A stretch of 64,000 bases of DNA, taken from Pseudomonadota bacterium (lineage in GTDB: Bacteria; Pseudomonadota; Gammaproteobacteria; Burkholderiales; JAKAFK01). Of this stretch, positions 4,329 through 28,338 are shown in pieces; within the stretch, counting starts at the first letter, position 1; each line of letters opens with the position of its first letter. Location: positions 3,167 to 67,166 of the forward strand of contig JAJYKK010000011.1 of NCBI GenBank assembly GCA_021788645.1, given 5' to 3'. The translations under genes and the position numbers were made by a program. The notes under the pieces are model-generated. The model made no database searches. It saw only the letters and a list, made by a program, of their open reading frames with translations, and was not told the origin of the DNA.

Positions 4329-4352
4329 GGTGTCGCCTCAGCGGCCCGGCCG

Positions 4353-5348: not shown

Positions 5349-5453
5349 GTTTGGCTCCTGTTGACCGCCGCGGGCCTTCCAGCCCGTGTGCGAGTGTGCG
5401 GGAAAGGAGCCCCTCGAACCGTCTAGACAGCCGTTCGAGACCGCGGGCCCTTC

Positions 5454-6671: not shown

Positions 6672-6750
6672 ATGACCCTCTCCCGCCTGTCCTCTGGACG
6701 CGCGGCATTGCGCGCGCTCATTCTCGCTTCAAGCTTCCCGCCGGCGCCGC

Positions 6751-7500
6751 CTACAAGATGCCTTCGTAGCGCACGGCCGGCTCCGTGCCCAGATCCGCCC
6801 TGACCTGCAGGGTCGCAATCGTGGCGACCCGCTGCGAGATCTCGCTCTTCGGATCGTTGAGGTCGCCGAACAGGAGCGCGCCGCCCCCGGTGGATCCGCA
6901 TGCTTCCACGCACGCGGGAATCTGTCCTTCGTCGATCCGGTGCTTGCAGAAATCGCAGCTCTCGGCGCACCCTTGGCCGCGCGGCACGTCGGGATTCTGA
7001 TCCGTCACCGGATGATGGACGAACGAGCGCGCCTTATACGGACACGCCATCAGGCAATAACGGCAGCCGATGCACAGATGGCGATCGACCGACACGATGC
7101 CGTCCCACCGCTTGAACGACGCCCCGGTGGGGCACACGTCGACGCACGGCGGGTTGTCGCAGTGCTGGCACATCATGGGCAGGGAATAGTTCTTTCCGGT
7201 CTCCCGGTCGGTGAGTTCCATCTTGCGGATCCACTGAGAGGAGGTGGGCAGCGTCTCCCCGGACAGATGGTTCTCCTTGTCGCAGGCGCTCACGCACTGC
7301 GTGCACCCGCTTGAGCATTTGGCCGTGTCGACCAGCATGCCCCAGCGCACCTTGCCCCATTGGGGACCCGACTCGCCCGCTTCCTCGTCCGCCCGTCCCT
7401 TGCCGGCCGTCACCAGAAACACGCCCGGCGCCACCACGAGGCCCGCCACGGCGGCCCCGGCCCCCAGCAGGTGCCTGCGCTCCTTATTGACTTCGCTCAT
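6751..7500 (-). CDS. dsrO: DsrO, periplasmic 4Fe-4S ferredoxin subunit with Tat signal
   Basis: ORF 6751..7701 trimmed to ATG 7500 (MSEVNKERRHLLGAGAAVAG, twin-arginine). Cys clusters CTQCVSAC, CQHCDNPPCVDVCP, CIGCRYCLMACP, CDFCKHR..CVEAC. The start overlaps the dsrJ stop (ATGA). Confidence 0.85.
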   Translation of the reverse strand: MSEVNKERRHLLGAGAAVAGLVVAPGVFLVTAGKGRADEEAGESGPQWGKVRWGMLVDTAKCSSGCTQCVSACDKENHLSGETLPTSSQWIRKMELTDRETGKNYSLPMMCQHCDNPPCVDVCPTGASFKRWDGIVSVDRHLCIGCRYCLMACPYKARSFVHHPVTDQNPDVPRGQGCAESCDFCKHRIDEGQIPACVEACGSTGGGALLFGDLNDPKSEISQRVATIATLQVRADLGTEPAVRYEGIL

Positions 7501-8027
7501 TTGCTCGCTCCCAGTCCAAGCCGCCCCGTCGAGGCGGATTCGCGCATCATCAAGGAAAGCCCGTGCGCATTCGCCCCCTCTCCGTGAGGTCCCATCGGCC
7601 CGTACAAGGGATGAAACGCGGGAACCTTGCCCTTCGGCGTCGCGGAGTGGCATTCGAAGCAGGTAATCTTGACTGCCGCATAGCGGTGGCAACTCACGCA
7701 AAAATCCTGCTTAGCCCCGAACACGGCGCCATTTGGCGCATCGGCCGCATGGCATTTCACGCAATTCTCGAGACTGTCCTTGCGGTCGCGTATGCCCTCC
7801 CGCACCCACTCGGTCCGCTCCTGCAGCAGAAGCTTCATGTGATTGTGCCGCATCCACTCGGTGGGCCGCACGCAATGGCCCGGCGCCTTCAGGATGGTCG
7901 GGCCCAGGTTTCCACTGGAAAAGACAGCGCCCTGGTTCGCCCCACACACGCTCGCCGCCGCCATGAGGGCGACAAACCCCAACACTCTCGGCCCCAGACA
8001 CCGAGTGATTCGACCCAGAACACTCAT
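7497..8027 (-). CDS. dsrJ: DsrJ, periplasmic triheme cytochrome c
   Basis: ORF 7497..8153 trimmed to ATG 8027 (MSVLGRITR..., signal peptide). Three haem motifs: CVKCH, CVSCH, CFECH. Confidence 0.85.
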   Translation of the reverse strand: MSVLGRITRCLGPRVLGFVALMAAASVCGANQGAVFSSGNLGPTILKAPGHCVRPTEWMRHNHMKLLLQERTEWVREGIRDRKDSLENCVKCHAADAPNGAVFGAKQDFCVSCHRYAAVKITCFECHSATPKGKVPAFHPLYGPMGPHGEGANAHGLSLMMRESASTGRLGLGASK

Positions 8028-8285
8028 ACAATCTCCGCAAGGAAAACCTCGATTTTGCTCGAGGGGCAAGTGCGCTTGCTCTACACGCCGGTCTTTCTCC
8101 CTGAAGGACGTCCTCCGGGCGCCGGCATCGGCCCGCGAGGACCCATCACGCACTCACGCGACCGCCGTCGGCGCCGCGCACCGGTCCGGACGGCCCGTCG
8201 CGAGCGCCGCCGCGGCGCAGGAACCCGACGCCCTCGGCGGGCGGCCAACCAGGCCCTGCGCTGCGCCGCGAGGCCCGCCTCGACG

Positions 8286-10238
8286 CTAGTCCCCCATGCC
8301 CATTTGAATGTAACCCGTGGGGCACACATCGGCGCAAATATGGCAGCCGACGCACTTGCTGTAGTCGGTGTCCACATAGCGCCCGGTGCTCGACTTGTCG
8401 CGCTTGACCTTGAACACGGCGGTCTGCGGGCAATAGATGACGCAGTTGTCGCACTCGAAGCACAGGCCGCAACTCATGCAGCGCTTGGCCTCCCCGATGG
8501 CTTGCTTCTCGTCGAGCGCCTCCAGGCGTTCCGCAAAGTGCCCCAGCACCTCTTCGGGCGTCAGGTTGTCCATGCGGCGCTTGTTGCGCTCCGAGTAGGT
8601 GAAGTGCCCGAGGAACAGTTCGTCGGCGGGAATCACATACTTGTCGGCGCGGTTTTCGAAGTTGTGCATGGCGCAGTTCGTCGAATCGGTGCCGCGCAGC
8701 GGCTCCGTGCACTCGGCCGGCTGCAGCCCCTTCTCCGCCATCTTGCGTATCATGTCGAAGCTGTGCACGTCGACCTTCGGGCGTTTCTCCTGCCCCTCGC
8801 CCTTGAGGAAGCGGTCGATGCCGTCCGCCGCGATCGAGCCGTGGCCGATGGCCGTGGTGAGCAAGTGCGGCCGCAGCACGTCGCCGCCGACGAAGACGTT
8901 TTCCTTGCCGGGCACGCGGTAGTTCTTGTCCGCGGCCATCAGGCCCTTGCCGTTGTCGAACTGCTCGAGGCCGGTGAAGTCGACGGCCTGACCGATGGCG
9001 GACACGATGAGGTCGGCCGGCAGATCCTGTTCGGTGCCGGGCTTGACGACGACCTGGTTCTTCACCACTTCGCATTCGGCGACGCGCAATGCCGTCGCAC
9101 GTCCGTCCGGGCCGACGACCACGGCGATCGGGGTAAGGCTGCCGCGGATCTCGATCCCTTCGGACAGGGCATGCTCGATTTCGTGCTTGTTCGCGTGCAT
9201 CTTGTCGATCGTCGAGCGCGTGATCAGCACCACGTCCGCCCCTTCCTTGGCGGAAACGGCCGCCACGTCATGGGCCACCTGCCCCATGATCACGAACTCG
9301 GGACGATCCGTTTCGTTCTCTTTGGTGATGTGCCCAAGACGACGGGCAACCGTCGCCACGTCGATCGAGGTGTCGCCACCGCCGACCACCACGATCCGCT
9401 TTCCGACATGCTGCAGGCGGCCTTCGTTGAAGGCGCGCAGGAAGGCCACTGCATGGACGCAGTTGGGGGCCTCCGCGCCGGGGACCGGCAACGCCCGTCC
9501 GCCTTGCGCCCCGAGGCCCATGAACACCGCATCGAACTCCTGCTCGATCTGCGCCATGGTCACGTCACGGCCGACGCGCGTGTTCAGGCGTGCTTCGACC
9601 CCCATGTCGAGGATCCGCTTGATCTCGGTATCGAGGACATCGCGCGGCGTGCGGAAACCGGGAATGCCGTAGCGCATCATGCCGCCCAGTTCGGCGTGCT
9701 CGTCGAAGATCGTGCACTCGTGCCCCTTCTTGCGCAGCTGATAGGCGCACGACAAGCCGGCAGGACCGCCGCCGATGATCGCGACCTTCTTGCCCGTGGA
9801 ATGCTCCGGCTTGGCAAAACCCAGGTTGTTGGCACGCCCCCACTCGCCGATATAGTGCTCGACCGAGTTGATCCCGACGTGATCTTCCACCTGGTTGCGG
9901 TTGCAGCCGCTCTCGCACGGTGCCGGGCACACCCGTCCCATCACGGAGGGGAAAGGGTTGGCTTCGGTCAGCCGATGGAAGGCATAGGATTGCCAGTTCA
10001 CGCCCGCGGGCGGCTTTTCCATGCCGCGCACGATGTTGAGGTAGCCCCGGATGTCTTCGCCGGCCGGGCAGCTGGCCTGGCAGGGCGGAGCGCTCAGCAC
10101 ATATTCCGGGCATTTGTGCGTATGATCCCCATCGACGAAGATCTTCTCCTGCATCGACTCCCACTCATTGTCGCCGTTCTTGAAGCGCCGGAAATTCAGG
10201 GCAGATTGCTTCTTCACGTCGTCGGATGTAACTGACAT
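8286..10238 (-). CDS. dsrL: DsrL, NAD(P)H-dependent iron-sulfur flavoprotein (GltD-like)
   Basis: Start at ATG 10238, preceded by AAGGAG. GltD-like body (VAIIGGGPAGLSCAYQLRKKGH, VVVGGGDTSID). C-terminal ferredoxin domain CMSCGLCFECDNCVIYCP and CVGCHICADVCP. Confidence 0.85.
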   Translation of the reverse strand: MSVTSDDVKKQSALNFRRFKNGDNEWESMQEKIFVDGDHTHKCPEYVLSAPPCQASCPAGEDIRGYLNIVRGMEKPPAGVNWQSYAFHRLTEANPFPSVMGRVCPAPCESGCNRNQVEDHVGINSVEHYIGEWGRANNLGFAKPEHSTGKKVAIIGGGPAGLSCAYQLRKKGHECTIFDEHAELGGMMRYGIPGFRTPRDVLDTEIKRILDMGVEARLNTRVGRDVTMAQIEQEFDAVFMGLGAQGGRALPVPGAEAPNCVHAVAFLRAFNEGRLQHVGKRIVVVGGGDTSIDVATVARRLGHITKENETDRPEFVIMGQVAHDVAAVSAKEGADVVLITRSTIDKMHANKHEIEHALSEGIEIRGSLTPIAVVVGPDGRATALRVAECEVVKNQVVVKPGTEQDLPADLIVSAIGQAVDFTGLEQFDNGKGLMAADKNYRVPGKENVFVGGDVLRPHLLTTAIGHGSIAADGIDRFLKGEGQEKRPKVDVHSFDMIRKMAEKGLQPAECTEPLRGTDSTNCAMHNFENRADKYVIPADELFLGHFTYSERNKRRMDNLTPEEVLGHFAERLEALDEKQAIGEAKRCMSCGLCFECDNCVIYCPQTAVFKVKRDKSSTGRYVDTDYSKCVGCHICADVCPTGYIQMGMGD

Positions 10239-10305
10239 CTCGCTGGTCTCCTTGAAAACGTTCCCTGCGGGAAGCTCGAGGGCCGGAGGCCCCCGCATCG
10301 CCGCC

Positions 10306-11802
10306 CTATTGTTTCGTACCCAACTGAATCGCCGTGCTCACCAACTGGTGCACGCCGCCAATCATGCTCATGTCGAACCCGTAATACGGGACCACCTTGG
10401 TGAACTGCGACTTGCAAATGGCGCAGATCAGGGCCATGAAGTTCACGCCATGGTCATCGACCACCTGCTTGAGCGCTTCCATCCGGGGCAAGGCACCCTT
10501 CACCCGGACCTCCATCAGGTCATCCGTGAGCAGGCCGCCGCCGCCCCCGCAGCAGAAGGTCTTCTCCTCGATCGTGTCCGGTGCCATGTCATGGAAATGG
10601 TTCGCGACCGACTTGATGATCGCGCGCGGGATAAAGAACTGGCCGCCGGGCATATTGCCCATGCGCGAGGCGCGCGCCACGTTGCACGAGTCATGGAAGG
10701 TGATGATGCGATGATCGTTGGCTTCCTTGTCGAGCGTCAGCGCACCGCGCTGAATGAGGTCCCAGGTCACTTCGCAGACATGCTGCGGCCATGGATAGCG
10801 CTTGTCGAGGAAATCGAGCGGGCCGATCAGGGTATTCCAGAAGCTATACGCCACCCGCCAGGCATGGCCGCACTCGCCGACGACGATCCGCTTGACGCCG
10901 AGATCGAGCGCGGCCTCGCGGATGCGCATCGCCACCTTGCGCATCTGCTCATAATTCCCGATGAACAGGCCGAAGTTGCCCGCCTCCGAGGCATGCGAGC
11001 TCAGCGTCCAGCTGATCCCCGCCTGATGGAACACCTTCGCATAGCCGATCAGGCTGTCGACGTGCGGTTCGGCAAAGAAGTCCGCCGATGGCGTAATCAA
11101 CAGCACTTCCGCGCCCTTGACGTCGATCGGCAGGCGAACGTCCACGCCGGTGTCCGCCTTGATGTCCTCCTCCAGGCCGGTGAGCGTGTCTTCCAGCGCC
11201 GGACCGGGAAGGCCCAGGTTGTTGCCGATCTTGTGAACCTTGCCGATGATCTCGTTGGTGTACTTGGTGCCCACGCTGACGGTGTCGAGGATCTCGCGCG
11301 CCGCCATGGTGACCTCGGCGGTGTCGATCCCATACGGACAGAATACCGAACACCGGCGGCATTCCGAACACTGGTGGAAGTAGGTGTACCACTGGTCCAG
11401 CACGTCGCGCGTGAGGTCCTCGGCACCCACCAGCTTCGGAAAGTATTTGCCCGCGAACGTGAAGTAGCGCCGATACACCTTGCGCAGCAGATCCTGGCGC
11501 GCCACCGGCATGTTGTTGGGATCCGAGGTGCCCAGGAAATAATGGCATTTGTCGGTACAGGCACCGCAGTGGACGCAGGTGTCCATGTACACGCGGAAGG
11601 AGCGGTACTTGTCCAACAGTTCGCCCATCTTGGCGATCGCCACATCGTGCCAGTCCTCCGGCAGCTCGCCCGGGAATCCCAACGCCTGCTGGATGCCCGC
11701 ATTGGCCGGAAAGGACTTCACCTCGGCCATCGCGTTCTCTTTGAGAACCGGGATGACGGGATAGGGCTTCAGTTTAGGTACTTCGAATTTGGCTTGGGCC
11801 AC
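10306..11802 (-). CDS. dsrK: DsrK, HdrD-like catalytic Fe-S subunit
   Basis: CVHCGACTDKCH and CSECRRCSVFCP ferredoxin motifs. CCG-domain signature FCCGGGGG. Follows dsrM. Confidence 0.9.
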   Translation of the reverse strand: MAQAKFEVPKLKPYPVIPVLKENAMAEVKSFPANAGIQQALGFPGELPEDWHDVAIAKMGELLDKYRSFRVYMDTCVHCGACTDKCHYFLGTSDPNNMPVARQDLLRKVYRRYFTFAGKYFPKLVGAEDLTRDVLDQWYTYFHQCSECRRCSVFCPYGIDTAEVTMAAREILDTVSVGTKYTNEIIGKVHKIGNNLGLPGPALEDTLTGLEEDIKADTGVDVRLPIDVKGAEVLLITPSADFFAEPHVDSLIGYAKVFHQAGISWTLSSHASEAGNFGLFIGNYEQMRKVAMRIREAALDLGVKRIVVGECGHAWRVAYSFWNTLIGPLDFLDKRYPWPQHVCEVTWDLIQRGALTLDKEANDHRIITFHDSCNVARASRMGNMPGGQFFIPRAIIKSVANHFHDMAPDTIEEKTFCCGGGGGLLTDDLMEVRVKGALPRMEALKQVVDDHGVNFMALICAICKSQFTKVVPYYGFDMSMIGGVHQLVSTAIQLGTKQ

Positions 11803-11851
11803 GGGTATCCCCTTACGAATCTATCGCTTGTCCTGTGCCGTCTGGCTCTAC

Positions 11852-12580
11852 TCAAGGTTCCAGCTTGGGTGCCCACGGCGTCACATGCTGCTGCTCGCGG
11901 GCGTTGTCCGCCTGGTTGCGCGTGGGGCTGAAGAACACGCCGGGCGCATGGAGCAGCTTGCTGATGGGAAAGATCGCGAGCAAGGTCGCCACGAGAAACA
12001 GGTGCACGAGCAGCGGCGGATCGGCGGGCAGCGGCTGCCAGTCGAAGTACACGAGCCCCAGGGCGAATTCCTTCAAGGAAATGATGTCGGTGTGCGAGAC
12101 GAAATCCATGCTCATGCCGCTCAAGCCGATCCCGAGCAGCAAGACCAGCATCAGGTGATCGGAGGGGGTCGAGATGTAGCGAATGCGCGGCACGAGGAAG
12201 CGGCGCGCCCACAAGCCCGCGAGCCCGCCCACCATCAGGAACGAGGCATACTTCCCGAACGGCTGGAGGAGCACGACCCAGGTCCACACCGGCTCGGTGA
12301 AGTAGCGCAGGTGGCGCAGCAGGACCAGCAGGAGTCCGAAATGGAACATCGCGCCGAAGAGCCAGATCCACTTGTTGGATTTGAACAGGCTCTCGAACAG
12401 CACGACCTCGCGTGCGACGCGAAAACCGGCGCCGGCGGGCGTCAGCGGCGCCGGCGTGGTGGGAATCTTGAGGGGCGCGGGCGTGCGCGCATAGCTGTAA
12501 ATGCGAAATCCGACGCCGAACACGAACATCGCCGTCGCGGCGTAAAACAAACAAGCGTACGTCACCGTCAGCCAAGACAT
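11852..12580 (-). CDS. dsrM: DsrM, NarI-like dihaem cytochrome b membrane subunit
   Basis: 242 aa with about 5 TM helices. FGAMFHFGLLLVLLRHLRYF and the downstream His residues are typical of NarI/HdrE-like proteins. Confidence 0.9.
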   Translation of the reverse strand: MSWLTVTYACLFYAATAMFVFGVGFRIYSYARTPAPLKIPTTPAPLTPAGAGFRVAREVVLFESLFKSNKWIWLFGAMFHFGLLLVLLRHLRYFTEPVWTWVVLLQPFGKYASFLMVGGLAGLWARRFLVPRIRYISTPSDHLMLVLLLGIGLSGMSMDFVSHTDIISLKEFALGLVYFDWQPLPADPPLLVHLFLVATLLAIFPISKLLHAPGVFFSPTRNQADNAREQQHVTPWAPKLEP

Positions 12581-12684
12581 CAGTCAGTCTCCAGTTTCCC
12601 GGTCCGGTTGCGGAGTCGAGCGAGGGGGGCGCCCGCCGAAGCTTGACGCCTTTCCCCGCCCTCCGCGCTTTGCTTCTTCGCTTC

Positions 12685-13017
12685 TTAGATGCAGCCCGTG
12701 GGCTTGGGCAGGCCGGCGATCTTGCATGCCTGCTTGGCCGGGCCGTAAGGGAAAAGCTCGTACAGGTACTTGTTGCTGCCCTTTTCCGGGCCCAGCTTCT
12801 TGCCGATCGCCTTGGTCAGCACGCGGATGGCCGGCGCGATCTGGTAGTCGTTGTAGTACTCACGCAGGAAGTTGATGACTTCCCAGTGATTGTCGGTCAT
12901 GTCGACCTTCTCTTCCTTCGCCAGATACTTGGCAGCCTCTTCATCCCATTCGCTCAGGTTGATGAGGTAGCCCTCTTCATCCGTCTCGTAGGTCTTGCCA
13001 TTGATTTCGAAGCTCAT
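12685..13017 (-). CDS. dsrC: DsrC, sulfur-transfer substrate protein of DsrAB with both conserved C-terminal cysteines
   Basis: 110 aa. HWEVINFLREYY, YLYELFPYGPAKQACKIAGLPKPTGCI. CysB lies in QACK and the penultimate CysA in TGCI. Confidence 0.95.
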   Translation of the reverse strand: MSFEINGKTYETDEEGYLINLSEWDEEAAKYLAKEEKVDMTDNHWEVINFLREYYNDYQIAPAIRVLTKAIGKKLGPEKGSNKYLYELFPYGPAKQACKIAGLPKPTGCI

Positions 13018-13061
13018 CGCTTACTCCTCTGCGCCAAATAAAAAATCAAGAACAGCCTTTA

Positions 13062-13361
13062 TTACAGCCAGGACTGCGTGTTGGCGTGTTCGGCCACGAG
13101 ATCGACGAAGCCGCCGTAGTCCACGAGCTTGACGCCGTCCAACAGCAGGTTGTTGACACCCCTCGCTTCCACATCGGGCGATAAGGCGTAAACGCTTACG
13201 GAACCTAGGGCCGCCTTGACGCCCGCGGCGGCAATGTTGTCGCGCGTTGCGGCATAGACGCCATCTTCGATCAGCAGGATTGCCGATCCCGCCTTCGCGA
13301 GCCGCAGACAGCTCTCAAGGTTGCGGGTTTGGTACGGCGATTTATTCACGATATGCAGCAT
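13062..13361 (-). CDS. dsrH: DsrH sulfur relay protein
   Basis: 99 aa. MLHIVNKSPY...SCLRLAKAGSAILLIEDGVYAA matches the DsrH/TusB pattern. Last gene of dsrEFH. Confidence 0.85.
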   Translation of the reverse strand: MLHIVNKSPYQTRNLESCLRLAKAGSAILLIEDGVYAATRDNIAAAGVKAALGSVSVYALSPDVEARGVNNLLLDGVKLVDYGGFVDLVAEHANTQSWL

Positions 13362-13377
13362 GTCACCACCTTGAGTG

Positions 13378-13785
13378 TTAGAAGCTAATGACCACGTCTT
13401 GCGCAGCCATCAGATCCGCCATTTCCTCATTGCTGAGCACCTCAACCGGGACGATCAGGTTCTCCTCGGTCAGGCCACGCGCCTTCAGCGACTCGGCGTC
13501 GACATAAAGCTTTTCGATGTCGTAGCCTTCAAGCGCCCGGTAGGTGGGCGAGAAATTCTTGACGTCGATGCCCTTGGTCGCTTGGCCCTTGACCAGCTCG
13601 TAGACGCCGTCGTCCACGAACGCAAGGCTCACGTCCTGGTCAAACGCCGCGCTGATCAGCACCACTTCCAGCCCTTCAAGGGCATAGATCGTGCCATAAG
13701 GCGCCTTGCGGTTGACGAACATGAACTTCTTGACGCGGCCGGCGGTCTCTTCCTCAACCTCGATGCCGCCCGTACTTTCCGTCAT
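13378..13785 (-). CDS. dsrF: DsrF sulfur relay protein
   Basis: ORF 13378..13842 trimmed to ATG 13785, preceded by GAGGAGAAGG. KKFMFVNRKAPYGTIYALEGLEVVLISAAFDQDVSLAFVDDGVYEL matches the DsrF/TusC pattern. Confidence 0.85.
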   Translation of the reverse strand: MTESTGGIEVEEETAGRVKKFMFVNRKAPYGTIYALEGLEVVLISAAFDQDVSLAFVDDGVYELVKGQATKGIDVKNFSPTYRALEGYDIEKLYVDAESLKARGLTEENLIVPVEVLSNEEMADLMAAQDVVISF

Positions 13786-13795
13786 AACCTTCTCC

Positions 13796-14155
13796 TCAAT
13801 CACCGAATACCACCAGGCGGTCCGCCTGGATGCCGGACTCAACCAACTGCCCGAGCCCCGAGATCCGGAAACCCTTCGCCAGGTTCTCTTCCAGGATGCC
13901 GCGGCGCAACGCCGCCGCCACGCACACCACCAGATCGATGCCGTGCTCCTCCGCGAGCTTCGACCAGCGATTCACGATATTCCGGTCGTCCTGCGGGGGT
14001 TCGGTCAGACGCGTTGCGTTGTTGACGCCGTCGTGATAGAAGAACACGCGGTGAATCTGATGCCCCTTCGCCAAAGCCGCCTTGACGAACTGATAGGCGG
14101 TGTCCGTCGCCTGATGCGTGTACGGACCTTCGCTGATCATTATTCCGAATTTCAT
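13796..14155 (-). CDS. dsrE: DsrE sulfur relay protein (active-site Cys present)
   Basis: MKFGIMISEGPYTHQATDTAYQFVKAALAKGHQIHRVFFYHDGVNNATRL...DLVVCVAAALRRGI...FRISGLGQLVESGIQADRLVVFGD is near-colinear with Allochromatium DsrE as recalled. Confidence 0.9.
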   Translation of the reverse strand: MKFGIMISEGPYTHQATDTAYQFVKAALAKGHQIHRVFFYHDGVNNATRLTEPPQDDRNIVNRWSKLAEEHGIDLVVCVAAALRRGILEENLAKGFRISGLGQLVESGIQADRLVVFGD

Positions 14156-14216
14156 ACCCAGTAGTCTCTTTCAAGCCGCCGCGCCCAACACTGCGCCTTG
14201 GGCGCGGACGGGCCGA

Positions 14217-15287
14217 TTAGAAGCGGATGTGTGCCGATGCGTTGAGGGTAGCCCGCGCACCACGCCAATTGTCGATGTGGTACTTGGTGAACGGCAATCC
14301 GGTCTTCTCGAAGAAGCGCGGCCAGCCAATGCGGTCGATCCAGTCGGCCATGCGCTCCCACGGCTGCGCGTCATTCTTGTAGGTGTTGAGGATGTTCTTC
14401 ACCACCGCCGCCGTTTCCGGCCAACGCGGCGCGCTATTGGGCAGGCCCGCGGCCACCAGCTTGTGGAAGGTCGGGCGCGTACGCGCATTGGAGTTCTTGC
14501 CCCCCACCCAGATCGCGATCTTGGAGTGCTCGGGATCGTTGATCTGCATCGGCGGGCAGGGCGGGAAGCAGGCGCCGCAGCACACGCACTTGCGCTCGTC
14601 GACTTCCAGCGACGGCTTGCCGTTGACCAGCGCGGGGCGGATCGCCGCCACCGGGCAACGCGCCACGACCGACGGACGCTCGCACACGTTCGCGACGAGG
14701 TCATGGTTGATCTTGGGCGGCTTGGTATGCTGGATCACGATGGCGATGTCCGCCTGGCCGCCGCAGTTGATCTCGCAGCAGGACGTGGACAGCTTCACCC
14801 GGTTGGGCATCTCGCACTTGACGAACTCGTCATAGAGCTCGTCCATCAGCGCCTTGACCACGCCCGACGCATCGGTGCCGGGAATGTCGCAGTGGAGCCA
14901 TCCCTGGGTGTGCGCAATCATGCTCACGGAGTTGGCGGTGCCGCCGACCGGGAAGCCGTTCTTGGTGAGCGCATCGATCAGCGGGTTCACCTTGGCTTCG
15001 CTCGACACCATGAACTCGATGTTGGATCGCGCGGTGAAGCGCACGTGCCCGTCGCCGAACTGGTCGGCGATGTCGCACAGCTTGCGAATGGTGTAGTGGT
15101 CCATCTGACGCTGCGTCCCGGCCTTCACCGTCCATACCTCGTCGCCGCCGTCGGCGCGATGGTACAACACCCCGGGGCGCGGGTGGCTGTGATATACCCA
15201 ATGACCATAATTCTTGCGCATCACGGGATGCATGTACTGCATCGGATCCGGTGCACCGCTCTCAATTGGTTGACGCATTTCAGCCAT
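14217..15287 (-). CDS. dsrB: Reverse dissimilatory sulfite reductase beta subunit DsrB
   Basis: 356 aa. Ferredoxin insert CVCCGACFPPCP. Sirohaem/Fe-S Cys pattern STSCCEINCGGQAD. Follows dsrA. Confidence 0.9.
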   Translation of the reverse strand: MAEMRQPIESGAPDPMQYMHPVMRKNYGHWVYHSHPRPGVLYHRADGGDEVWTVKAGTQRQMDHYTIRKLCDIADQFGDGHVRFTARSNIEFMVSSEAKVNPLIDALTKNGFPVGGTANSVSMIAHTQGWLHCDIPGTDASGVVKALMDELYDEFVKCEMPNRVKLSTSCCEINCGGQADIAIVIQHTKPPKINHDLVANVCERPSVVARCPVAAIRPALVNGKPSLEVDERKCVCCGACFPPCPPMQINDPEHSKIAIWVGGKNSNARTRPTFHKLVAAGLPNSAPRWPETAAVVKNILNTYKNDAQPWERMADWIDRIGWPRFFEKTGLPFTKYHIDNWRGARATLNASAHIRF

Positions 15288-15363: not shown

Positions 15364-16662
15364 CTAGCCGCCCGACGCCTTGCGTTCCGTGGCCTTCTCG
15401 ACCTCCTCGTCCCAACCATCCATCCGAATATACGGATTGGCGCGAGGCTGCAGGATCATGTTCGCATCGACTTCGAGGCCCATGCCTTCCAGGAAGTTCG
15501 ACAGGCCGATGCGATCGATCATCTCGCCGGTCCGCTCGTGGTCCAGCGCATTCTCGGCAAAGAAGTCGAGCATGTTGCGCGAAAGCTCGTTCAGCTTGTC
15601 GAAGTCCTCGTCCGACTCGAGCTTCATGAAGGGAATGACGACCGTTCCCATGGTCGCGCCGATCTTCAGCACGCTCTTGCCGCCCACCAGGATGGTCACG
15701 CCCTTGTCCTTGCCCGGCAACAGCGCGCCCGGCATCACGTTGAGGCAGTGCATGCAGCGCACGCAGTTGTGGTTGTCGATTTCCAGGGCCGTCGCATCGT
15801 CCAGCGCGACCGCGCTGAAGCCGTCGGTCGTGCGCGCCTCGCCCGCCTTCTTCACGGCCAGGGCCTTGCTCGGGCAGCGGGTCACGACGTTGTTGACCAG
15901 GCCTTCCATGCCGTTGGCGGCGAACCATTCGCGGGCAAGCTTCTCGTCGGTCCGGATGTTGTCGCGCCAGGTGCCGATGACCGCCATGTCGGAACGCTGA
16001 ATCGAGTTCACGCAGTCATTGGGGCAGCCGGCAAACTTGAACTTGAACTTGTACGGCAGCGCCGGGCGGTGCATGTCGTCGATGTTGTTGTTGATGACCG
16101 TCTGCAGGGCGCGCGACTCGTCGTAGCAGGACATTTCGCACCGGGCGGCGCCGACGCAGGACATCGAGGTCCGCAGGGCCGGTCCTGCACCCCCGAGGTC
16201 GAAGCCCATTTCGTTGAACTCGTCGAAGGCCGGCTGCACGTTCGCGGTGCTCACCCCCTGGAACATGATGTCGCCGCTTTGCCCGTGGAAGGCGATCAGG
16301 CCGGAACCGTGCTTCTGCCATACGTCGCACATCTTGCGCAGCAGATCGGTGCTGTAATGCATGCCGGCGGGCGGCTGGATACGCAGGGTATGGAACTCGG
16401 CCGCATCCGGGAACACGGGCTTCTCGTTCGCGTCCTTGAGCTCCGTGAAACGGGGGATGACGCCGCCGCCATAACCGAAGACCCCCACGGTACCGCCTTT
16501 CCAGTAACCTTTCTTGGTCTCGTAGGAGGTCTCGAGCTGACCCAACAGATCAACCATCATGTCGTTTTCTTGGGCGAGGCGCTTGAGCCCGGTCACAAAG
16601 CTCGGCCACGGCCCGCTTTCCAGTTGGTCAAGCATGGGCGTGTCGTGCATTTTCTTGGCCAT
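15364..16662 (-). CDS. dsrA: Reverse dissimilatory sulfite reductase alpha subunit DsrA
   Basis: ORF 15364..16794 trimmed to ATG 16662 (MAKKMHDTPMLDQLESGPWPSFVTGLKRLA). CVGAARCEMSCYD, FAGCPNDCV and ferredoxin insert CVRCMHCLNVMP. Confidence 0.9.
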   Translation of the reverse strand: MAKKMHDTPMLDQLESGPWPSFVTGLKRLAQENDMMVDLLGQLETSYETKKGYWKGGTVGVFGYGGGVIPRFTELKDANEKPVFPDAAEFHTLRIQPPAGMHYSTDLLRKMCDVWQKHGSGLIAFHGQSGDIMFQGVSTANVQPAFDEFNEMGFDLGGAGPALRTSMSCVGAARCEMSCYDESRALQTVINNNIDDMHRPALPYKFKFKFAGCPNDCVNSIQRSDMAVIGTWRDNIRTDEKLAREWFAANGMEGLVNNVVTRCPSKALAVKKAGEARTTDGFSAVALDDATALEIDNHNCVRCMHCLNVMPGALLPGKDKGVTILVGGKSVLKIGATMGTVVIPFMKLESDEDFDKLNELSRNMLDFFAENALDHERTGEMIDRIGLSNFLEGMGLEVDANMILQPRANPYIRMDGWDEEVEKATERKASGG

Positions 16663-16883
16663 GGTCAATCTCCGTAGGAAGTCTGCAGCAGTTTTATGAG
16701 ACGCTTGGATGCGCGCACTTCGCCGCGCACCCCCGCAAAACGAAAATCGGTGCCTAGGCGGCGACCGCGTCCCCGGCACTTCCGGGAACACCACCGCCGA
16801 TCAGGCCCGTCCACAACTCACCGATGGGCTGCATGTTACAGCCGTTCGCCGTTCAGCCCAATCACCCCGAGTGGTGCCTTCAA

Positions 16884-16901
16884 CCTACCCGCATGGGTAG
16901 G
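16884..16901. promoter_or_regulatory. Perfect 7-bp inverted repeat CCTACCC-GCAT-GGGTAGG in the dsrA-divergent intergenic region
   Basis: Read directly: cctaccc (16884-16890), gcat, gggtagg (16895-16901). It lies between dsrA (start 16662) and the plus-strand operon (first start 17043). Confidence 0.3.
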
Positions 16902-17042
16902 TTATGGCTCCTCCCCTAGGATGGTCGGTCTCTTCGTCTATTGATTCAGCCCAGGGGAGTCCCCATACTTGGGGGGCAGGTCAAAGCGGGATCAAGTCGC
17001 ATTCGTTCACCCCTTAATATTTTGCGTCTGGGAAGGATCGGC

Positions 17043-17267
17043 GTGGAAGAAATCACTCGCCTTCAAAAATTTGCCGCCACTCCCTTCAAGCAGGAGATCG
17101 AGCTCCAGCGCGTGGATCACGCGGCGGGGTTCACCACGTTGCGCATCCGCATCCGGGAAGGCAAGCGATTTACCATCTTCGACATCGACGAGGCCACCGC
17201 CCTCCACTGGGGAGAGGCGCTGACCGACTGGGCGCGCTCGCGAGCCCAGACAGGAGAGACAAAATAG
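17043..17267 (+). CDS. Hypothetical 74-aa protein, first gene of the dsrA-divergent operon
   Basis: Part of ORF 16941..17267. GTG at 17043 is preceded by GGAAGGA 5 nt upstream. Sequence VEEITRLQKFAATPFKQEIELQRVDHAAGFTTLRIRIREGKRFTIFDIDEATALHWGEAL. No family recognised. Confidence 0.4.
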   Translation: MEEITRLQKFAATPFKQEIELQRVDHAAGFTTLRIRIREGKRFTIFDIDEATALHWGEALTDWARSRAQTGETK

Positions 17268-17326
17268 GCTGGCCAGCAGAAGAGGGCGCCGCGCTCGCCG
17301 CGCGCGAGCCCGCCGTTACCGACCTC

Positions 17327-17902
17327 GTGTTCGACCTCAAGGGCACGCTTGTGCCCGAGGATCACGCCTACGCGCTCTTTTGCGCGCTCGAACGCGCGCT
17401 GCCCTGGCTCGGTTCCGAGGGGCAGGCGGGCGTGCATCCCATCGGCGGGGCCGAGACCGGGACCGGGGAGCTTATCTTGAATCGGCGCGCCAAACTCGCG
17501 CTACGCCTTCCGCTGCACCGCGTGGAGGACGCGAAGGCCTTGTGCGGGCGCGAGCTCGCGCTGGGCACGCATCGCGTGGGCGTGGGGCCGGCCAAAGAGA
17601 AGCCCCTGACACGGCACACCCCCCTGTATGCGCACTGCGTGGTCACGGGCAACCGGGACGAGGCGCAGTTCGCCCGCGACATCATGAAGGCGCTCGACGA
17701 CCGAGGCATCGATACCCGCTTCATCTGCGGACGCGCGCGCTCGCTTGCGACGCCGGACGGGACCGCGTGGGGCTTCAGCCTGCTCCTCCACGGATTGCCG
17801 GTGGAGCATGCGATCGCCGTTCAGGAGACGGGGATCGGGGAGTATCACCTGCTGGGATGCGGCCTGTTCATTCCGCACAAGTCCATCGCCGCCTTGGAGT
17901 AG
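17327..17902 (+). CDS. Orphan Cas6/Cmx6-like (RAMP-fold) protein
   Basis: GTG start. The N-terminus FDLKGTLVPEDHAYALFCALERALPWL and the C-terminus GIGEYHLLGCGLFIPHK fit my recollection of the subtype I-MYXAN Cas6/Cmx6 family pattern (D-x-F-x-L-x-G-x-x-L-P-x-D-H-x-Y-x-L ... G-x-G-x-x-x-x-x-G-C-G-x-F-x-P). Not verified by search. Confidence 0.45.
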   Translation: MFDLKGTLVPEDHAYALFCALERALPWLGSEGQAGVHPIGGAETGTGELILNRRAKLALRLPLHRVEDAKALCGRELALGTHRVGVGPAKEKPLTRHTPLYAHCVVTGNRDEAQFARDIMKALDDRGIDTRFICGRARSLATPDGTAWGFSLLLHGLPVEHAIAVQETGIGEYHLLGCGLFIPHKSIAALE

Positions 17903-17997
17903 GAAAGATACCCGCGCCCTCGGTCGGCCGCTGAATTTTTATCTAAACTATCGAAGATTCCCAACCCAACTATCGAAAAACAGGAGGACCACGCATC

Positions 17998-18327
17998 ATG
18001 GTGTACGTCGTTAACGGCCAAGAACTCGAAACGGACAAGGACGGCTACCTGCTGGAACCGGATTACAGCGAGGAAGTGGTTTCGGTGATCGCCGCTGCCG
18101 AAGGCATCGCCCTCACCGACCAGCACTGGGAGGTCGTCAACTTCATGCGCGACCAGTACCGCGACAATGGCCATACGCCGAATTTCCGCGTCATGCTGAA
18201 GGAGTTTTCGGAGATCAATCCGGCGGCAGACAAGAAATACCTTTATGACCTGTTCCCGATGGGACCGGCCAAACAGGCGGCAAAGGTCGCAGGACTTCCC
18301 CAGCCCTATGGCAAAGGCGGGTACTGA
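17998..18327 (+). CDS. DsrC/TusE-family paralogue lacking both functional cysteines
   Basis: Aligns by eye end-to-end with the window's own DsrC: HWEVVNFMRDQY / HWEVINFLREYY and YLYDLFPMGPAKQAAKVAGLPQPYGKGGY / [27 protein letters not shown]. CysB is replaced by Ala, and the CysA arm by GKGGY. Confidence 0.85.
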   Translation: MVYVVNGQELETDKDGYLLEPDYSEEVVSVIAAAEGIALTDQHWEVVNFMRDQYRDNGHTPNFRVMLKEFSEINPAADKKYLYDLFPMGPAKQAAKVAGLPQPYGKGGY

Positions 18328-18376
18328 ACGCGCGGCCCGGGGGCACCCCGGGCCCGGCCACAAGATTGTATCGCCC

Positions 18377-19222
18377 ATGCCCTATACGACGCTCGTCACC
18401 ACCGACGACCTCTCGGCCCATCTTCACTCGGCCGAATGGGTCGTCTTCGACTGCCGATTCACCCTGACCGATCCGGCCGCCGGACGCAGGGCCTATGACA
18501 AGGCCCACATTCCGAATGCGCGCTACGCCCATCTCGACGACGATCTGGCCGCGCCCCTGAGCGGCACGAACGGCCGCCACCCCTTGCCGGATCCGGCGCG
18601 CCTGGCGGCCAAGCTGGGCGCCTGGGGCGTGGGGCCGACGACCCAGGTCGTGGTCTACGACGACAGCTTCGGCGCCATGGCCGGCCGGCTGTGGTGGTTG
18701 CTTCGCTGGCTGGGCCACGGGCAGGTGGCGCTCCTGGACGGCGGCTGGCAGAAATGGGTGCGCGAAGGCCATGCCATCACCCTCGAGCCGCCCGCCATCA
18801 CGCCCGCCCGCTTCGAGGCGCGCGCTCGCCCCGAACTCCTGCTGGACGCCCAGGCGGTTCTGGCGGCCCTGGAGCAGGACGCCCTCATCATCGACGCGCG
18901 CGCCGATGTGCGTTTTACCGGCGAGCACGAAACCCTCGATCCGGTCGGGGGCCACGTCCCGGGCGCGGTCAACTGGCCGTACGAGGACAACCTGGACCTC
19001 GACGGCACCTTCCTCCCGGCCGACGAGCTGCGCGAACTGTATCTGGGCGTGCTCGCGGGACGACCGGCGAGCGGGGCCATCCATATGTGCGGCTCCGGCG
19101 TCACCGCGTGCCACAACCTGATTGCGATGGAAGTGGCGGGACTGCCGGGCGGGAAGCTCTATCCCGGATCGTGGAGCGAATGGGTCGCCGACCCGACAAG
19201 ACCGGTGGCGACCGGAGGCTGA
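18377..19222 (+). CDS. Two-domain rhodanese, 3-mercaptopyruvate/thiosulfate sulfurtransferase (SseA-like)
   Basis: ORF 18245..19222 trimmed to ATG 18377 (MPYTTLVTTDDL). Tandem rhodanese domains. Active-site loop HMCGSGVTACH (CGSGVTA type). Confidence 0.85.
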   Translation: MPYTTLVTTDDLSAHLHSAEWVVFDCRFTLTDPAAGRRAYDKAHIPNARYAHLDDDLAAPLSGTNGRHPLPDPARLAAKLGAWGVGPTTQVVVYDDSFGAMAGRLWWLLRWLGHGQVALLDGGWQKWVREGHAITLEPPAITPARFEARARPELLLDAQAVLAALEQDALIIDARADVRFTGEHETLDPVGGHVPGAVNWPYEDNLDLDGTFLPADELRELYLGVLAGRPASGAIHMCGSGVTACHNLIAMEVAGLPGGKLYPGSWSEWVADPTRPVATGG

Positions 19223-19228: not shown

Positions 19229-19786
19229 ATGCGTGTCAAGACTTCTTGGTTCAACGAGGGGGGCGAGCGCGATGCCAGCGAGACGGCAAGCGTGCTCGCC
19301 TCCACCATCTGGCGGCTCGCCGATGCCGCCATCATCGACCTGTCCAAGGCGAACTACGACATCGTGACCCCCGAACGGGGCATCACGCTGATGGCCGAGT
19401 TCATCGCCTTCCTCGCCCACGTGAGCGATCGCTTGAGCGCGCAACATCTCGACGACGAGGCGCGCGCCGCCCTCATCCAGGCCCTGGGCCTGCGCCTGGG
19501 CGAGATCATGGAGGACAACGTGCGCACCCTGGTGCAGGATGACGGACGCGACTTCCGGGCAGAGTTCATCGACATGCTCAACCGGCGCGCAGCCGACTAT
19601 GCCACCTTCGCGCTGGCCTCGGAACCCAGCTTCCCGATGCTGCGCTTCCTGGGGCTCAAGATCCGTGAACGAATGGAAAGCCATGACCAGCCCTGGATCA
19701 TGGATCAGATCGCCGACATTGAAGCCCCCAAGGCCTTCGAGACCGTCAAGCGGACGGTCGACGGCCTATTGGGGGGCGTTTCCTGA
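19229..19786 (+). CDS. Hypothetical 185-aa cytoplasmic protein
   Basis: Starts 6 nt after the rhodanese stop. Codon usage matches its neighbours. Predicted helical, no signal peptide. No family recognised. Confidence 0.55.
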   Translation: MRVKTSWFNEGGERDASETASVLASTIWRLADAAIIDLSKANYDIVTPERGITLMAEFIAFLAHVSDRLSAQHLDDEARAALIQALGLRLGEIMEDNVRTLVQDDGRDFRAEFIDMLNRRAADYATFALASEPSFPMLRFLGLKIRERMESHDQPWIMDQIADIEAPKAFETVKRTVDGLLGGVS

Positions 19787-19821: not shown

Positions 19822-20730
19822 ATGGTCTTAGCAACGCACTCCGGCCTGAAAGCCGCCACGAGCCCCTTCTCGCTGGACGCCGAAGCGGAATACGATCGGT
19901 GGCGCGCCGACAAGCTGCGCCATTACCCGAGCAGCATCGAAGCGCTGATCGTGGAGATCCGAGATCCGATGACGCTCCAGCCCGCCGAGCACGATGCCAT
20001 CGTGTCCCGGATTCGCCGCGCCAACATGGCCATTTATGCCGCCCCCGCCGCCCTCGGGGAGAACAAGGCCGTCCCCAGGGAGCTCGGGCGCCAGTTCGGA
20101 CTGACCCATCTCGACGGCAACCTTCTGGCCGACGATGACGCCATCAGTTCGCTCACCGTGGCGAATGGCGCGCCGCGTCGCGATTTCATTCCCTACACCA
20201 ATTCCGCCATCAAATGGCATACCGACGGCTACTACAACCCGCCGGAGAACAGGGTGCAGGCCATGGTGCTGCACTGCGTGCGCCCCGCCTTGCAGGGGGG
20301 CGCGAACCAGCTGCTGGACCACGAAATGGCCTATCTCCTCATCCGCGAGCATGAGCCGGAGTACATCCGCGCCTTGATGGCGCCCGACGTCATGACCATT
20401 CCCGCGCGCGCTGAGGACGCAGGCATCGCCCGCCCGGCGCAGGCAGGGCCGGTATTTTCCGTCACCCCGGAGGGCCGCCTGCACATGCGCTACACGGCAC
20501 GCACGAAAAGCATCGAATGGAAGGACGACGCCCTCACGAAAGCCGCCGTGGCCTTTCTGGAGGCGCTGCTCGCCAGCGACCTGCCGTATATTTTCCGGGG
20601 GCGCCTGGAAGCCGGCCAGGGACTCATCTGCAACAATGTGCTGCATGACCGCTCCGGCTTCAAAGACGACGAGGCCCGCCCGCGACTGCTGTACCGCGCG
20701 CGTTACCACGAGCGGATTGCAGGCTCCTGA
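19822..20730 (+). CDS. TauD/TfdA-family Fe(II)/2-oxoglutarate-dependent dioxygenase
   Basis: 302 aa. HxD iron ligands in AIKWHTDGYYN. C-terminal CNNVLHDRSGF...RLLYRARY fits the distal His and the 2OG-binding Arg. Confidence 0.7.
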   Translation: MVLATHSGLKAATSPFSLDAEAEYDRWRADKLRHYPSSIEALIVEIRDPMTLQPAEHDAIVSRIRRANMAIYAAPAALGENKAVPRELGRQFGLTHLDGNLLADDDAISSLTVANGAPRRDFIPYTNSAIKWHTDGYYNPPENRVQAMVLHCVRPALQGGANQLLDHEMAYLLIREHEPEYIRALMAPDVMTIPARAEDAGIARPAQAGPVFSVTPEGRLHMRYTARTKSIEWKDDALTKAAVAFLEALLASDLPYIFRGRLEAGQGLICNNVLHDRSGFKDDEARPRLLYRARYHERIAGS

Positions 20731-20760: not shown

Positions 20761-21842
<1,082 letters not shown>

Positions 21843-21846
<4 letters not shown>

Positions 21847-22481
21847 GCGATACGCCGTTGCGCGAGGCCCTCCTCGACGCCGCACGACGCATGGCGGCCG
21901 ACGGACTCAACCGGGGCGCCTCGGGCAACTTGAGCGTGCGCGTCGCGCACGGTTTCCTCATTACCCCAAGCGGGCTCGACTACGATGAGATGACCCCGGA
22001 CGACCTGGTGCAGATGAATCTGGACGGCACGTGGCGCGGGCCGCGCCCCCCTTCGAGCGAATGGCGCTTCCACCGCGACATCCTGGCCACGCATCCGGAG
22101 TTGGGGGCCGTGGTCCACACCCATTCGACCTTTGCCACGACCCTTGCATGCTTGAGCATCACCGTTCCCGCCTTCCACTACATGATCGCGGTCGCCGGGG
22201 GCAAGGACATCCGTTGCGCGCCCTATGCGACATTCGGCACGCAGCGACTCTCCGACCATGCGCTGGCGGCCCTCCAGGGGCGCCATGCCTGCCTGCTCGC
22301 CCACCACGGCATGATCGCGACCGGGCCGACGCTCAAGGCGGCCGCGGACCTCGCCTATGAAGTGGAAGCGCTCTGCGAGCAATACTGGCGAGCGTATCAG
22401 TTGGGCACGCCACCCTGCCTGTCGGATGAGGAAATGGACATCGTGCTGGAAAAATTCAAGGATTACCGGCGCCGCGCCTAG
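21843..22481 (+). CDS. Class II (zinc) aldolase/adducin-family protein, MtnB/Ald2/FucA-like
   Basis: Start overlaps the mtnA stop (ATGA). GASGNLSVRV...ITPSG...PSSEWRFHRDIL...AVVHTHSTFATTLA carries the metal-ligand His residues. Confidence 0.8.
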
Positions 22482-22662: not shown

Positions 22663-23295
<633 letters not shown>

Positions 23296-27901: not shown

Positions 27902-28315
27902 TCAGTGTGGTGTCTGCTGCTGTTCGATGTACTGTCGCACGATGGAGATGGGAGCGCCGCCGCAGCTTGAAGCGAAGTACGACGGCGACCACAGGACACC
28001 GCGCCAGTAGCGTTTCTGGATGTCGGGCCGTTCCTCGCGCAGCAGGCGGCTGGACACGCCTTTGAGGCTGTTCACGAGGTTGGAGACGGCGACCTTCGGC
28101 GGATATCCCACCAGCAGGTGGACGTGATCGTCCTCGCCGTCCATTTCGATCAGTTGCGCCTCGAAGTCGGCGCAGGTCTTGGCGAAGATGATGCGCAGCC
28201 GGTCGATAGTGTCGCCGTCGAACACTTTGCGGCGGTACTTCGCCACAAAGACCAAGTTAACGTGCATCTTGAAAATGCAGTGCCTTCCATGCCTAATATC
28301 GTTGTCATTGCTCAT
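27902..28315 (-). CDS. tnpA: IS200/IS605 Y1 (HUH) transposase TnpA
   Basis: 137 aa. HUH motif DDHVHLLVGYPP. C-terminal LWSPSYFASSCGGAPISIVRQYIEQQ carries the catalytic Tyr. Confidence 0.9.
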   Translation of the reverse strand: MSNDNDIRHGRHCIFKMHVNLVFVAKYRRKVFDGDTIDRLRIIFAKTCADFEAQLIEMDGEDDHVHLLVGYPPKVAVSNLVNSLKGVSSRLLREERPDIQKRYWRGVLWSPSYFASSCGGAPISIVRQYIEQQQTPH

Positions 28316-28338
28316 AGACCAAGAGTCTAATTCAACAC

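Follow-up and report, generated by a model that had tools for sequence, protein, structure and literature searches.

The 64-kb stretch of contig JAJYKK010000011.1 analysed here (the window, which denotes the whole stretch) carries an open reading frame (ORF) at positions 17327 to 17902 on the plus strand, whose product is a genuine full-length protein of the Cas6/Cmx6 family with a glycine-rich (G-rich) loop. It belongs to a very large Cas6-fold subfamily that is dedicated to the oxidative (reverse) Dsr system and is independent of CRISPR. Within this subfamily the Cas6-like gene and a neighbouring gene for a cysteine-less DsrC-like protein form an obligate pair. The explanation we tentatively favour, at somewhat below an even chance, is that the Cas6-like protein may serve, together with the DsrC-like protein, as a regulatory module that binds nucleic acid.

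The ORF starts with GTG and encodes 191 amino acids, including both peptides quoted in an earlier note on this DNA, which had read its N- and C-terminal sequences as fitting the Cas6/Cmx6 family. Profile searches bear this assignment out; Pfam PF09559 ('Cas6 Crispr', a model of 191 positions) matches residues 2 to 186 with E=1.1e-55, NCBIfam TIGR02807 (cas6_cmx6) scores 137 bits against a curated cut-off of 98.85, and several PADLOC Cas6 models also match the protein. The sole meaningful sequence match in the PDB is 8fcj_B, the Cas6 of a type I-B CRISPR-associated transposon (CAST) Cascade (E=1.9e-13). An AlphaFold2 model built from an alignment of 49 homologues (predicted local distance difference test, pLDDT, 91.7; predicted template modelling score, pTM, 0.85) contains two tandem ferredoxin-like domains of the RNA recognition motif (RRM) type, and a Foldseek search with it returned 8fcu_B/8fcj_B first (TM-score 0.89, root-mean-square deviation 1.7 Å), followed only by Cas6 and Cas6e endoribonucleases. 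The tandem RRM folds and the G-rich loop for which the earlier note had proposed a structural check are thus both present. In the window protein the loop reads GIGEYHLLGCG, which conforms to the pattern GhGxxxxxGhG and is atypical and non-basic beside the clade consensus GLGxNRKxGCG. The profile, PDB and Foldseek matches therefore confirm the family, the fold and the G-rich loop, and by alignment the protein falls in a dsr-linked subfamily marked by the motif GCGxF[IV]PHKS. The Cas6-like frame is also open 5′ of the GTG codon (17268-17326), where it encodes ...AVTDL, similar to the conserved N-terminal VTDVQ of the homologues, and translation may thus begin a few codons further upstream; a non-canonical upstream codon may perhaps be used, or the N-terminus may have been shortened in the window lineage.

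The genomic setting of this gene is that of sulfur metabolism rather than of CRISPR immunity, as the earlier note had described it. No repeat-spacer array was found in the window by Tandem Repeats Finder, Rfam, direct-repeat or k-mer array scans, the single match of the Rfam gathering-threshold scan being a tRNA at 50901-50973. Gene calls based on frame bias in G+C content at third codon positions (GC3) were screened against Pfam and include no Cas family in the window; the absence of an array and of any other cas gene noted earlier therefore stands on four array scans and a Pfam screen that agree. The GC3 of the Cas6-like gene itself, 0.87, is typical of host genes. On the minus strand, at about 2.5 to 16.7 kb, lies a full oxidative dsr operon headed by dsrA (15364-16662, start ATG at 16662), which is divergent from the Cas6-like module. 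The remainder of the operon (2511-15287, minus strand) comprises dsrB, E, F, H, C, M, K and L, an ORF at the dsrJ position, dsrO, dsrP and others. Its content of dsrAB, dsrEFH, dsrC, dsrMK(JOP) and dsrL is that of an oxidative-type Dsr cluster, and Pfam annotation of syntenic loci and tblastn agree on this. The dsrC copy of this operon keeps both cysteines, the ORF at the dsrJ position has no Pfam match, and the dsrN- and dsrR-like genes were assigned from sequence appearance.

This arrangement is conserved across a wide range of relatives. The exact window protein occurs on at least seven assembled contigs, with identical neighbours on all four of the contigs shown, and homologues at 52-57% identity occupy the same position in other Betaproteobacteria (Sulfurimicrobium and others). 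A search of 1.8 billion proteins clustered at 50% returned 1108 representative clusters, the top 150 of which have in common the motifs P.DH, GIHPI.G and ICG[KR], with GCGxF[IV]PHKS at the C-terminus; several of these are absent from the solved CAST Cas6. A gammaproteobacterial branch (Thiohalobacter, Thiogranum) of about 231 amino acids and about 40% identity, and three 'FVPHKS' branches from metagenome-assembled genomes of Burkholderiales/Betaproteobacteria, are likewise encoded divergently from dsrABEFHCMKL and followed by a DsrC-like gene. Linkage to dsr genes was seen in ten of ten context look-ups and in a further 80 metagenome loci (39-62% identity, Beta- and Gammaproteobacteria), in which neighbours were located by tblastn with the window's own proteins. 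Of 46 loci with 2.2 kb or more of sequence on the upstream side, 45 have dsrA there in divergent orientation, and the exception ends at a sequence edge. The DsrC-like gene follows within 900 nt in 65 of 66 loci, and rhodanese and TauD genes each accompany the module in 33 of 41. Neither a CRISPR-like array, in a k-mer array scan of 737 kb of flanking sequence from related loci, nor a cas operon beside an array, in the window and about 90 related loci, was found. The suggestion of the earlier note that a Cas6 fold had been recruited outside CRISPR biology is supported by this linkage, which holds in every locus examined across two proteobacterial classes and therefore makes a displaced I-MYXAN cas6 very unlikely, whatever the genomes contain elsewhere.

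The obligate partner of the Cas6-like protein is a DsrC/TusE-family protein (RspA-like; 17998-18327, plus strand) that has lost both C-terminal cysteines and ends in -PYGKGGY. At its C-terminus the canonical DsrC of the window reads ...ACKIAGLPKPTGCI, but the partner ...AAKVAGLPQPYGKGGY, and the partner lacks the two C-terminal cysteines (…C…PTGC[VI]) of DsrC proper. All 71 homologous partners examined end in -KGGY or -KAGY (the tail being -[YF]GKGGY, -xRKGGY or closely similar), and no cysteine occurs within the last 25 residues in 65 of the 71. Members of the DsrC family without cysteines have been classed as RspA in published work. With its redox cysteines gone, the partner therefore cannot carry sulfur as DsrC does. 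As a separate observation, the Gly-Gly one residue from the C-terminus in the -GKGGY/-RKGGY tails recalls carriers of the ThiS/MoaD/QbsE type, in which a GG terminus is exposed after trimming; neither an adenylating enzyme nor a JAMM protease was observed in the cluster. Seven loci (L050, L052, L053, L056, L070, L074 and L075) have a gap of 550-590 nt between the Cas6-like and DsrC-like genes with an extra ORF that is TusA-like by eye (...CGLNCPAPLL), and locus L096 has a Pfam-annotated TusA gene (10083-10565) after the DsrC-like gene, which hints at a link to the Rhd-TusA-DsrE sulfur relay; TusA and a Fer2 protein are found in the module of some loci.

A second small partner, the 74-residue DUF6967 protein (17043-17267, plus strand), is encoded immediately 5′ of the Cas6-like gene. 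In several other loci the DUF6967 frame and the Cas6-like start codon overlap by 4 nt; DUF6967 usually precedes the Cas6-like gene, to which, judging from this overlap, it is translationally coupled. It has an invariant strand, LRIRIRExKRF, and a single-sequence model of moderate confidence (pLDDT 69.5) with a bbbb-alpha topology; a profile search gave no match among PDB sequences or in NCBIfam. Every one of the model's best Foldseek matches is a PUR repeat, a type of single-stranded-nucleic-acid binder. These matches are weak (E 0.06-0.3, TM 0.5-0.58), and DUF6967 is possibly PUR-like as a lead only.

Residue conservation was examined across a set of 89 diverse members and in a separate alignment of beta- and gammaproteobacterial proteins. 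In the diverse set every member has R60, G171, G177 and G179, the last three being loop glycines, and R54, R174, W27, E112, F115 and Q166 are nearly invariant, while H13, H37, R54, R60, R65, C178 and H184 are invariant in the beta-plus-gamma alignment; H37 is exchanged for Q or L in a few family members. Strong purifying selection on the dsr-linked proteins is evident, judging from these many invariant residues. H13 and H37 align with the DH and GIHPI motifs common to dsr-linked and cas-operon Cas6 proteins; the candidate catalytic residues conserved in the dsr-linked set are D12-H13-x-Y15, H37 and R54. Relative to cas-operon members, the dsr-linked proteins have gained the invariant motifs RFICG (with Cys134), SLMLHGLP (His155) and the C-terminal PHKS (His184/Lys185). 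The window protein is an outlier in its clade, with EYHLL in the loop where the clade has xNRKx. A search for covariation between the G-rich loop and the type of repeat element described below gave no clear pattern except in the window lineage, where an odd loop coincides with a bulge-less hairpin.

The intergenic region between dsrA and the Cas6-like operon contains an inverted repeat, E1 (16884-16901), which reads CCTACCC-GCAT-GGGTAGG, has its core TACCC-N4-GGGTA at 16886-16899 and would be centred near -67 of the dsrA promoter. Its fold is very stable on either strand (z about -4.9). A second, degenerate inverted repeat (CACCCCGAGTGGTG; 16863-16876) lies between E1 and the -10-like hexamer TAACAT of dsrA (16833-16838, minus strand), which is 47 nt from E1, and a candidate promoter of the Cas6-like operon, TTGATT-N17-CATACT, is located at 16941-16969 on the plus strand. 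A simple sigma-70 scan of the window's intergenic region found no promoter, and the promoter assignments therefore rest on comparative phasing. The core, as TACCC-N4-GG(n)GTA, is present in 64 of 68 distinct dsrA-proximal intergenic regions, gammaproteobacterial ones included, and the rest of the spacer is unalignable between subclades. One arm of the element is invariant and the other has a movable 1-nt bulge; the length of the loop is conserved, but not its sequence. The five core pairs never vary among loci and therefore carry no covariation information, while the flanking pairs did no better than shuffled controls in a covariation test (67.7% paired vs 66.7% in shuffles; covariation 0.134 vs 0.120, a value reached by 84 of 500 shuffles). 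The dsrA-sense strand folds better in 46 of 64 loci, close to a compositional background of 59%.

With all loci anchored on E1 and distances measured to the TAnnAT hexamer, a TAnnAT box (TAACAT, TAATAT, TAGTAT or TACGAT) was found at +47-49 nt in 24 loci, at +70-72 nt in 33 and at +93 nt in 3, amounting to 60 of 64 loci where chance would give about 0.023 per 5-nt window. From one class to the next the spacing changes by about 22-23 bp, or roughly two turns of the helix, and a further copy of the element, inverted, occupies the gap in the +70 class. The hexamer is preceded, 21 nt upstream, by a conserved gaATGAT(G/A)G box. Between E1 and the dsrA ATG there are 90 to 264 nt, depending on the locus, and a TTGAT box at a fixed +38-41 nt from E1 was found in only 12 of 64. 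Phasing at about -67, -90 and -113 is that of an upstream operator or activator site, unlike that of a transcribed hairpin, and together with the lack of covariation the quantised distances to the -10-like box suggest that E1 is most likely an upstream operator or activator site in the promoter DNA of dsrA rather than an RNA target. The hairpin at 16884-16901 that the earlier note had singled out for RNA-binding and cleavage assays is thus real and conserved, but as an RNA target it was demoted, given the lack of covariation, a strand bias near background and the phase-locking to the -10-like box.

Transcribed parts of the operon were also searched. No universal hairpin occurs across loci in its transcribed gaps, and therefore no RNA substrate was identified there. 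The gaps between the Cas6-like and DsrC-like genes, many of them 14-30 nt long, have only subclade-specific structures of a stem plus U-tract, and two intra-operon gaps of the window fold no better than shuffles. In the window, a GC-rich imperfect stem (GCGCCC...GGCCGC) followed by UGAAUUUUUAUC lies between these two genes at 17913-17941, and other subclades have GCCGG-N5-CCGGC plus a U-tract in the same gap; the stem of the window may act as a partial terminator and in this way fix the stoichiometry between the two proteins.

In the explanation favoured here, the Cas6-like protein would keep its nucleic-acid-binding apparatus (Arg54, Arg60 and Arg65, the G-rich-loop Arg, His13 and His37) and would be joined in a regulatory module by the DsrC-like protein, a putative sulfur-carrier mimic unable to carry sulfur, with the possibly PUR-like DUF6967 as a further partner. 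Such a module would link expression of the dsr operon, and of the module's own operon, to the state of the Dsr pathway, its cis target being either the phased inverted repeats, as structured, unwound or hairpin promoter DNA, or some transcript. Binding of nucleic acid is suggested because the RNA-contact residues are retained and because the DUF6967 model best matches PUR repeats, if weakly; a role as local regulator is suggested because of the divergent arrangement, the presence of the element in 64 of 68 regions and its phasing to TAnnAT in 60 of 64. Such a divergent layout around shared conserved sites is what local regulators typically show. A more specific prediction, which we consider unlikely though far from negligible, is that a repeat-associated mysterious protein (RAMP) has become, through domestication, the dedicated regulator of an operon of core energy metabolism and is inherited vertically in sulfur-oxidising Beta- and Gammaproteobacteria; in that version the cysteine-less DsrC would be the sensing subunit and the PUR-like partner would separate strands, with action on the hairpin-forming repeats at the dsrA promoter or on a cognate RNA. 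Several results weigh against a nucleic-acid-binding regulator. The dsr-linked proteins are not basic, taking isoelectric point (pI) and net charge as a proxy for an RNA-binding surface (n=87, median pI 7.35, median net charge 0, compared with pI 9.4-9.6 and +7 to +10 in cas-operon members), the window protein (pI 6.9, net charge -1) also lacks the loop Arg-Lys, and all partner proteins of the module are acidic. Neither the covariation test on E1 nor the search of the transcribed gaps revealed an RNA target, and the module carries enzymes (TauD-like and rhodanese, with TusA and Fer2 in some loci) that give it a metabolic flavour. DsrD, which has a DNA-binding fold and is encoded in a dsr cluster, has been reported to act on the enzyme, and the factor that binds E1 could be an unlinked transcription factor.

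Many of the same results are what would be expected if the protein acted at the level of the enzyme, the main alternative, which we judge unlikely to about the same degree as the domesticated-RAMP prediction. The Cas6 fold would then be a protein or ligand scaffold that docks the DsrC-like protein and modulates or chaperones DsrAB or the sulfur relay, the -GKGGY arm would mimic the DsrC arm that enters DsrAB, and the promoter repeats would be bound by another factor. A near-neutral charge unlike that of RNA-binding Cas6, the failure of the covariation test and of the operon gaps to reveal an RNA target, the obligate pairing with a DsrC-family protein and an operon rich in sulfur-relay and redox enzymes (rhodanese, TusA, TauD-like, Fer2) all fit this alternative, as do the subfamily-specific invariants Cys134, His155 and His184/Lys185, which are absent from cas-operon members, and the precedent of DsrD, a winged-helix protein once supposed to be a regulator that proved to be an allosteric activator of DsrAB. 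It is harder to reconcile with the retention of the RAMP RNA-contact residues (the loop Arg, Arg54/60 and the GIHPI His) in more than 80 diverse members, and with a coupled DUF6967 that may have a single-stranded-nucleic-acid-binding fold. A catalytic Cas6-type endoribonuclease acting on a housekeeping substrate, the RNA-processing role considered in the earlier note, appears improbable; it would recognise and cut a short G/C stem-loop, either in the leader of dsrA, in the mRNA of its own operon or in a trans-acting RNA, and so set mRNA stability post-transcriptionally. Conservation of D12-H13-x-Y15, H37 and R54 is in line with it, as is the shape of E1, which resembles I-MYXAN repeat hairpins in its 4-5 bp G/C stem and tetraloop. 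The invariant arm of E1, the movable bulge in the other arm, a loop kept in length without sequence, and a dsrA-sense strand that folds slightly better in 46 of 64 loci also fit; post-transcriptional control of dsr genes is reportedly exerted by DsrR/DsrS in Allochromatium vinosum. However, the promoter geometry suggested by the quantised E1 distances would place E1 outside the dsrA transcript, in the window lineage E1 also lies upstream of the candidate divergent promoter, and this alternative is further weakened by the lack of covariation, a strand bias close to the 59% background, the absence of a universal operon hairpin and the neutral charge. A last alternative, in which the gene would be a cas6 out of place or in decay, belonging to an I-MYXAN system in another part of the genome or left over from a lost one, is effectively excluded. 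A score above the TIGR02807 equivalog cut-off would suit such an origin, but the gene sits in the same place beside dsrA and a DsrC-like gene in about 90 loci, in subclades down to 40% identity, with purifying selection, host-like GC3 (0.87), only 24-31% identity to cas-operon members and no arrays in the 737 kb of flanks.

Comparison with known systems places the regulator favoured here, and its rivals, in context. Genuine cas-operon members are 24-31% identical to the window protein; the I-MYXAN operons on plasmids of Nostoc sp. MS1 and Synechocystis PCC 6714 (L093, L094), which were used as positive controls and whose Cas6 proteins are 25-27% identical, have the order cas6-cas3-cas8-cas7-cas5-cas4/1-cas2 plus arrays. 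The dsr-linked protein shares with type I-MYXAN/I-B Cas6 (Cmx6) the family, the tandem ferredoxin-like fold, the G-rich loop, the DH and GIHPI motifs and a cysteine in the GCG turn. Unlike these proteins, it has no cas operon or 36-nt repeat array, is near neutral instead of strongly basic, carries the additional RFICG, SLMLHGLP and PHKS motifs, and has dsrAB and a DsrC-like gene as its fixed neighbours; it thus passes the I-MYXAN Cas6/Cmx6 profile threshold and lacks the cas-operon context that defines the type. A comparison of the dsr element with true I-MYXAN repeats, such as the Synechocystis 6714 repeat hairpin UGCC-GUAA-GGCG, showed the same architecture and a different sequence, and was not diagnostic. 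Exapted CRISPR components have been described in CASTs and in a Streptomyces I-E-derived cas5-6-7-8 module with a STAND NTPase (PMC8730458), and like these the dsr-linked protein is a Cas protein outside adaptive immunity, without an adaptation module or array. Those systems keep several Cas subunits, usually a guide RNA, and a role in conflict or mobility, whereas the dsr-linked case is a lone Cas6-fold gene inside a core energy-metabolism locus. DsrD is comparable as a small protein with a nucleic-acid-binding fold, encoded beside dsrAB, whose fold suggested regulation; it differs in being a winged-helix protein of sulfite reducers (reductive dsr) that was found experimentally to be an allosteric DsrAB activator with only non-specific DNA binding, while the Cas6-like protein is of the oxidative type. 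The DsrC-like partner shares the PF04358/TIGR03342 fold without the two redox cysteines with RspA-type DsrC relatives, and is set apart from other cysteine-less relatives by its own strict -[YF]GKGGY/-RKGGY end and its constant pairing with a Cas6-like gene. As a separate observation, a protein annotated as I-MYXAN Cas6/Cmx6 on the Gloeobacter morelensis plasmid pGMOR1 (L010, NZ_CP063846.1, 79927-80718), 31% identical and without a cas operon, is surrounded by hypothetical genes, two PAPS-reductase-family genes and DNA methyltransferases, and may reflect another, independent recruitment of the family outside CRISPR, here into an island for defence or DNA modification.

All named dsr-linked members that were looked up are labelled 'type I-MYXAN CRISPR-associated protein Cas6/Cmx6' or 'CRISPR-associated protein Cas6', a systematic annotation error that inflates counts of CRISPR-Cas systems among sulfur oxidisers and conceals a dsr gene. 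In the searchable literature neither a Cas6 linked to dsr genes nor the pairing of Cas6-like and DsrC-like genes was found to have been described, and the papers on CRISPR evolution that were read do not mention a dsr-linked Cas6. One Thiohalobacter genome paper lists 'DsrC1C2A2B2 (FOKN1_1941/1943/1945/1946)' and skips the intervening genes. The loci assembled here define a large, conserved and apparently undescribed accessory module (Cas6-like protein, cysteine-less DsrC-like protein, DUF6967, the protein of about 190 amino acids, TauD-like dioxygenase and rhodanese) of reverse-Dsr sulfur oxidation, a system that is biogeochemically central and whose regulation and accessory factors are poorly understood. 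They also offer a clear example of a Cas protein taken over for housekeeping functions, which bears on the evolution of RAMPs and their abilities outside CRISPR. If the domesticated-RAMP prediction is true, a housekeeping regulatory role would be seen here for the first time in a Cas6 relative, and the case might show something of what RAMPs did outside CRISPR. The operator-like repeats phased to the dsrA promoter are testable cis elements, and one cultured carrier of the gene, Thiohalobacter sp. IOR34, has a complete genome of 2.96 Mb.

Downstream of the DsrC-like gene, the plus-strand module continues with a tandem-rhodanese sulfurtransferase (SseA-like, 18308-19222), an acidic conserved protein of about 190 amino acids (185 in the window, 19229-19786) for which no relatives were detected in PDB, Pfam or NCBIfam profile searches and no family or structural relative was found, and a TauD-family Fe(II)/2-oxoglutarate dioxygenase-like protein (19822-20730), whose gene is the first of the module in the gammaproteobacterial version. 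In the window lineage only, the TauD-like gene is followed by MtnA-like (IF-2B family) and class II aldolase genes of the methylthioribose salvage type (20761-22481), the place of which is taken in other lineages by BirA/pantothenate kinase or by a Fer2 protein of about 500 amino acids and a Peptidase_S24 protein. A TrpD-like gene of glycosyltransferase family 3 (4356-5453, minus strand, 366 amino acids) lies inside the dsr operon between dsrP and dsrN, and a homologue is also found near the module in a Thiohalobacter locus (L011, 14935-16059).

To the right of the module are housekeeping genes, a copy of an IS200/IS605 element, the tRNA gene and a mobilisable element. A perfect (TGCTGT)x7.8 repeat at 22964-23010 encodes a poly-glutamine run in a predicted secreted protein of 210 amino acids (22663-23295, minus strand). 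The IS200/IS605 element (27902-29280) consists of a Y1 transposase gene, tnpA (27902-28315, minus strand), and an OrfB/TnpB-like gene (28339-29280, plus strand) with HTH_OrfB_IS605 and OrfB_IS605 domains, whose product of 313 amino acids appears truncated. Behind the tRNA gene, the region from 50901 to 64000 is an apparent integrated mobilisable or conjugative element with GC3 below that of the rest of the window, encoding a NikA-like protein and a MobA/VirD2 relaxase-primase (54396-56953), TrbL/VirB6 (58118-59596), and a ribbon-helix-helix protein with ParA (62210-63139). Short tandem repeats at 52046-52164 within this element could be iterons or att-related.

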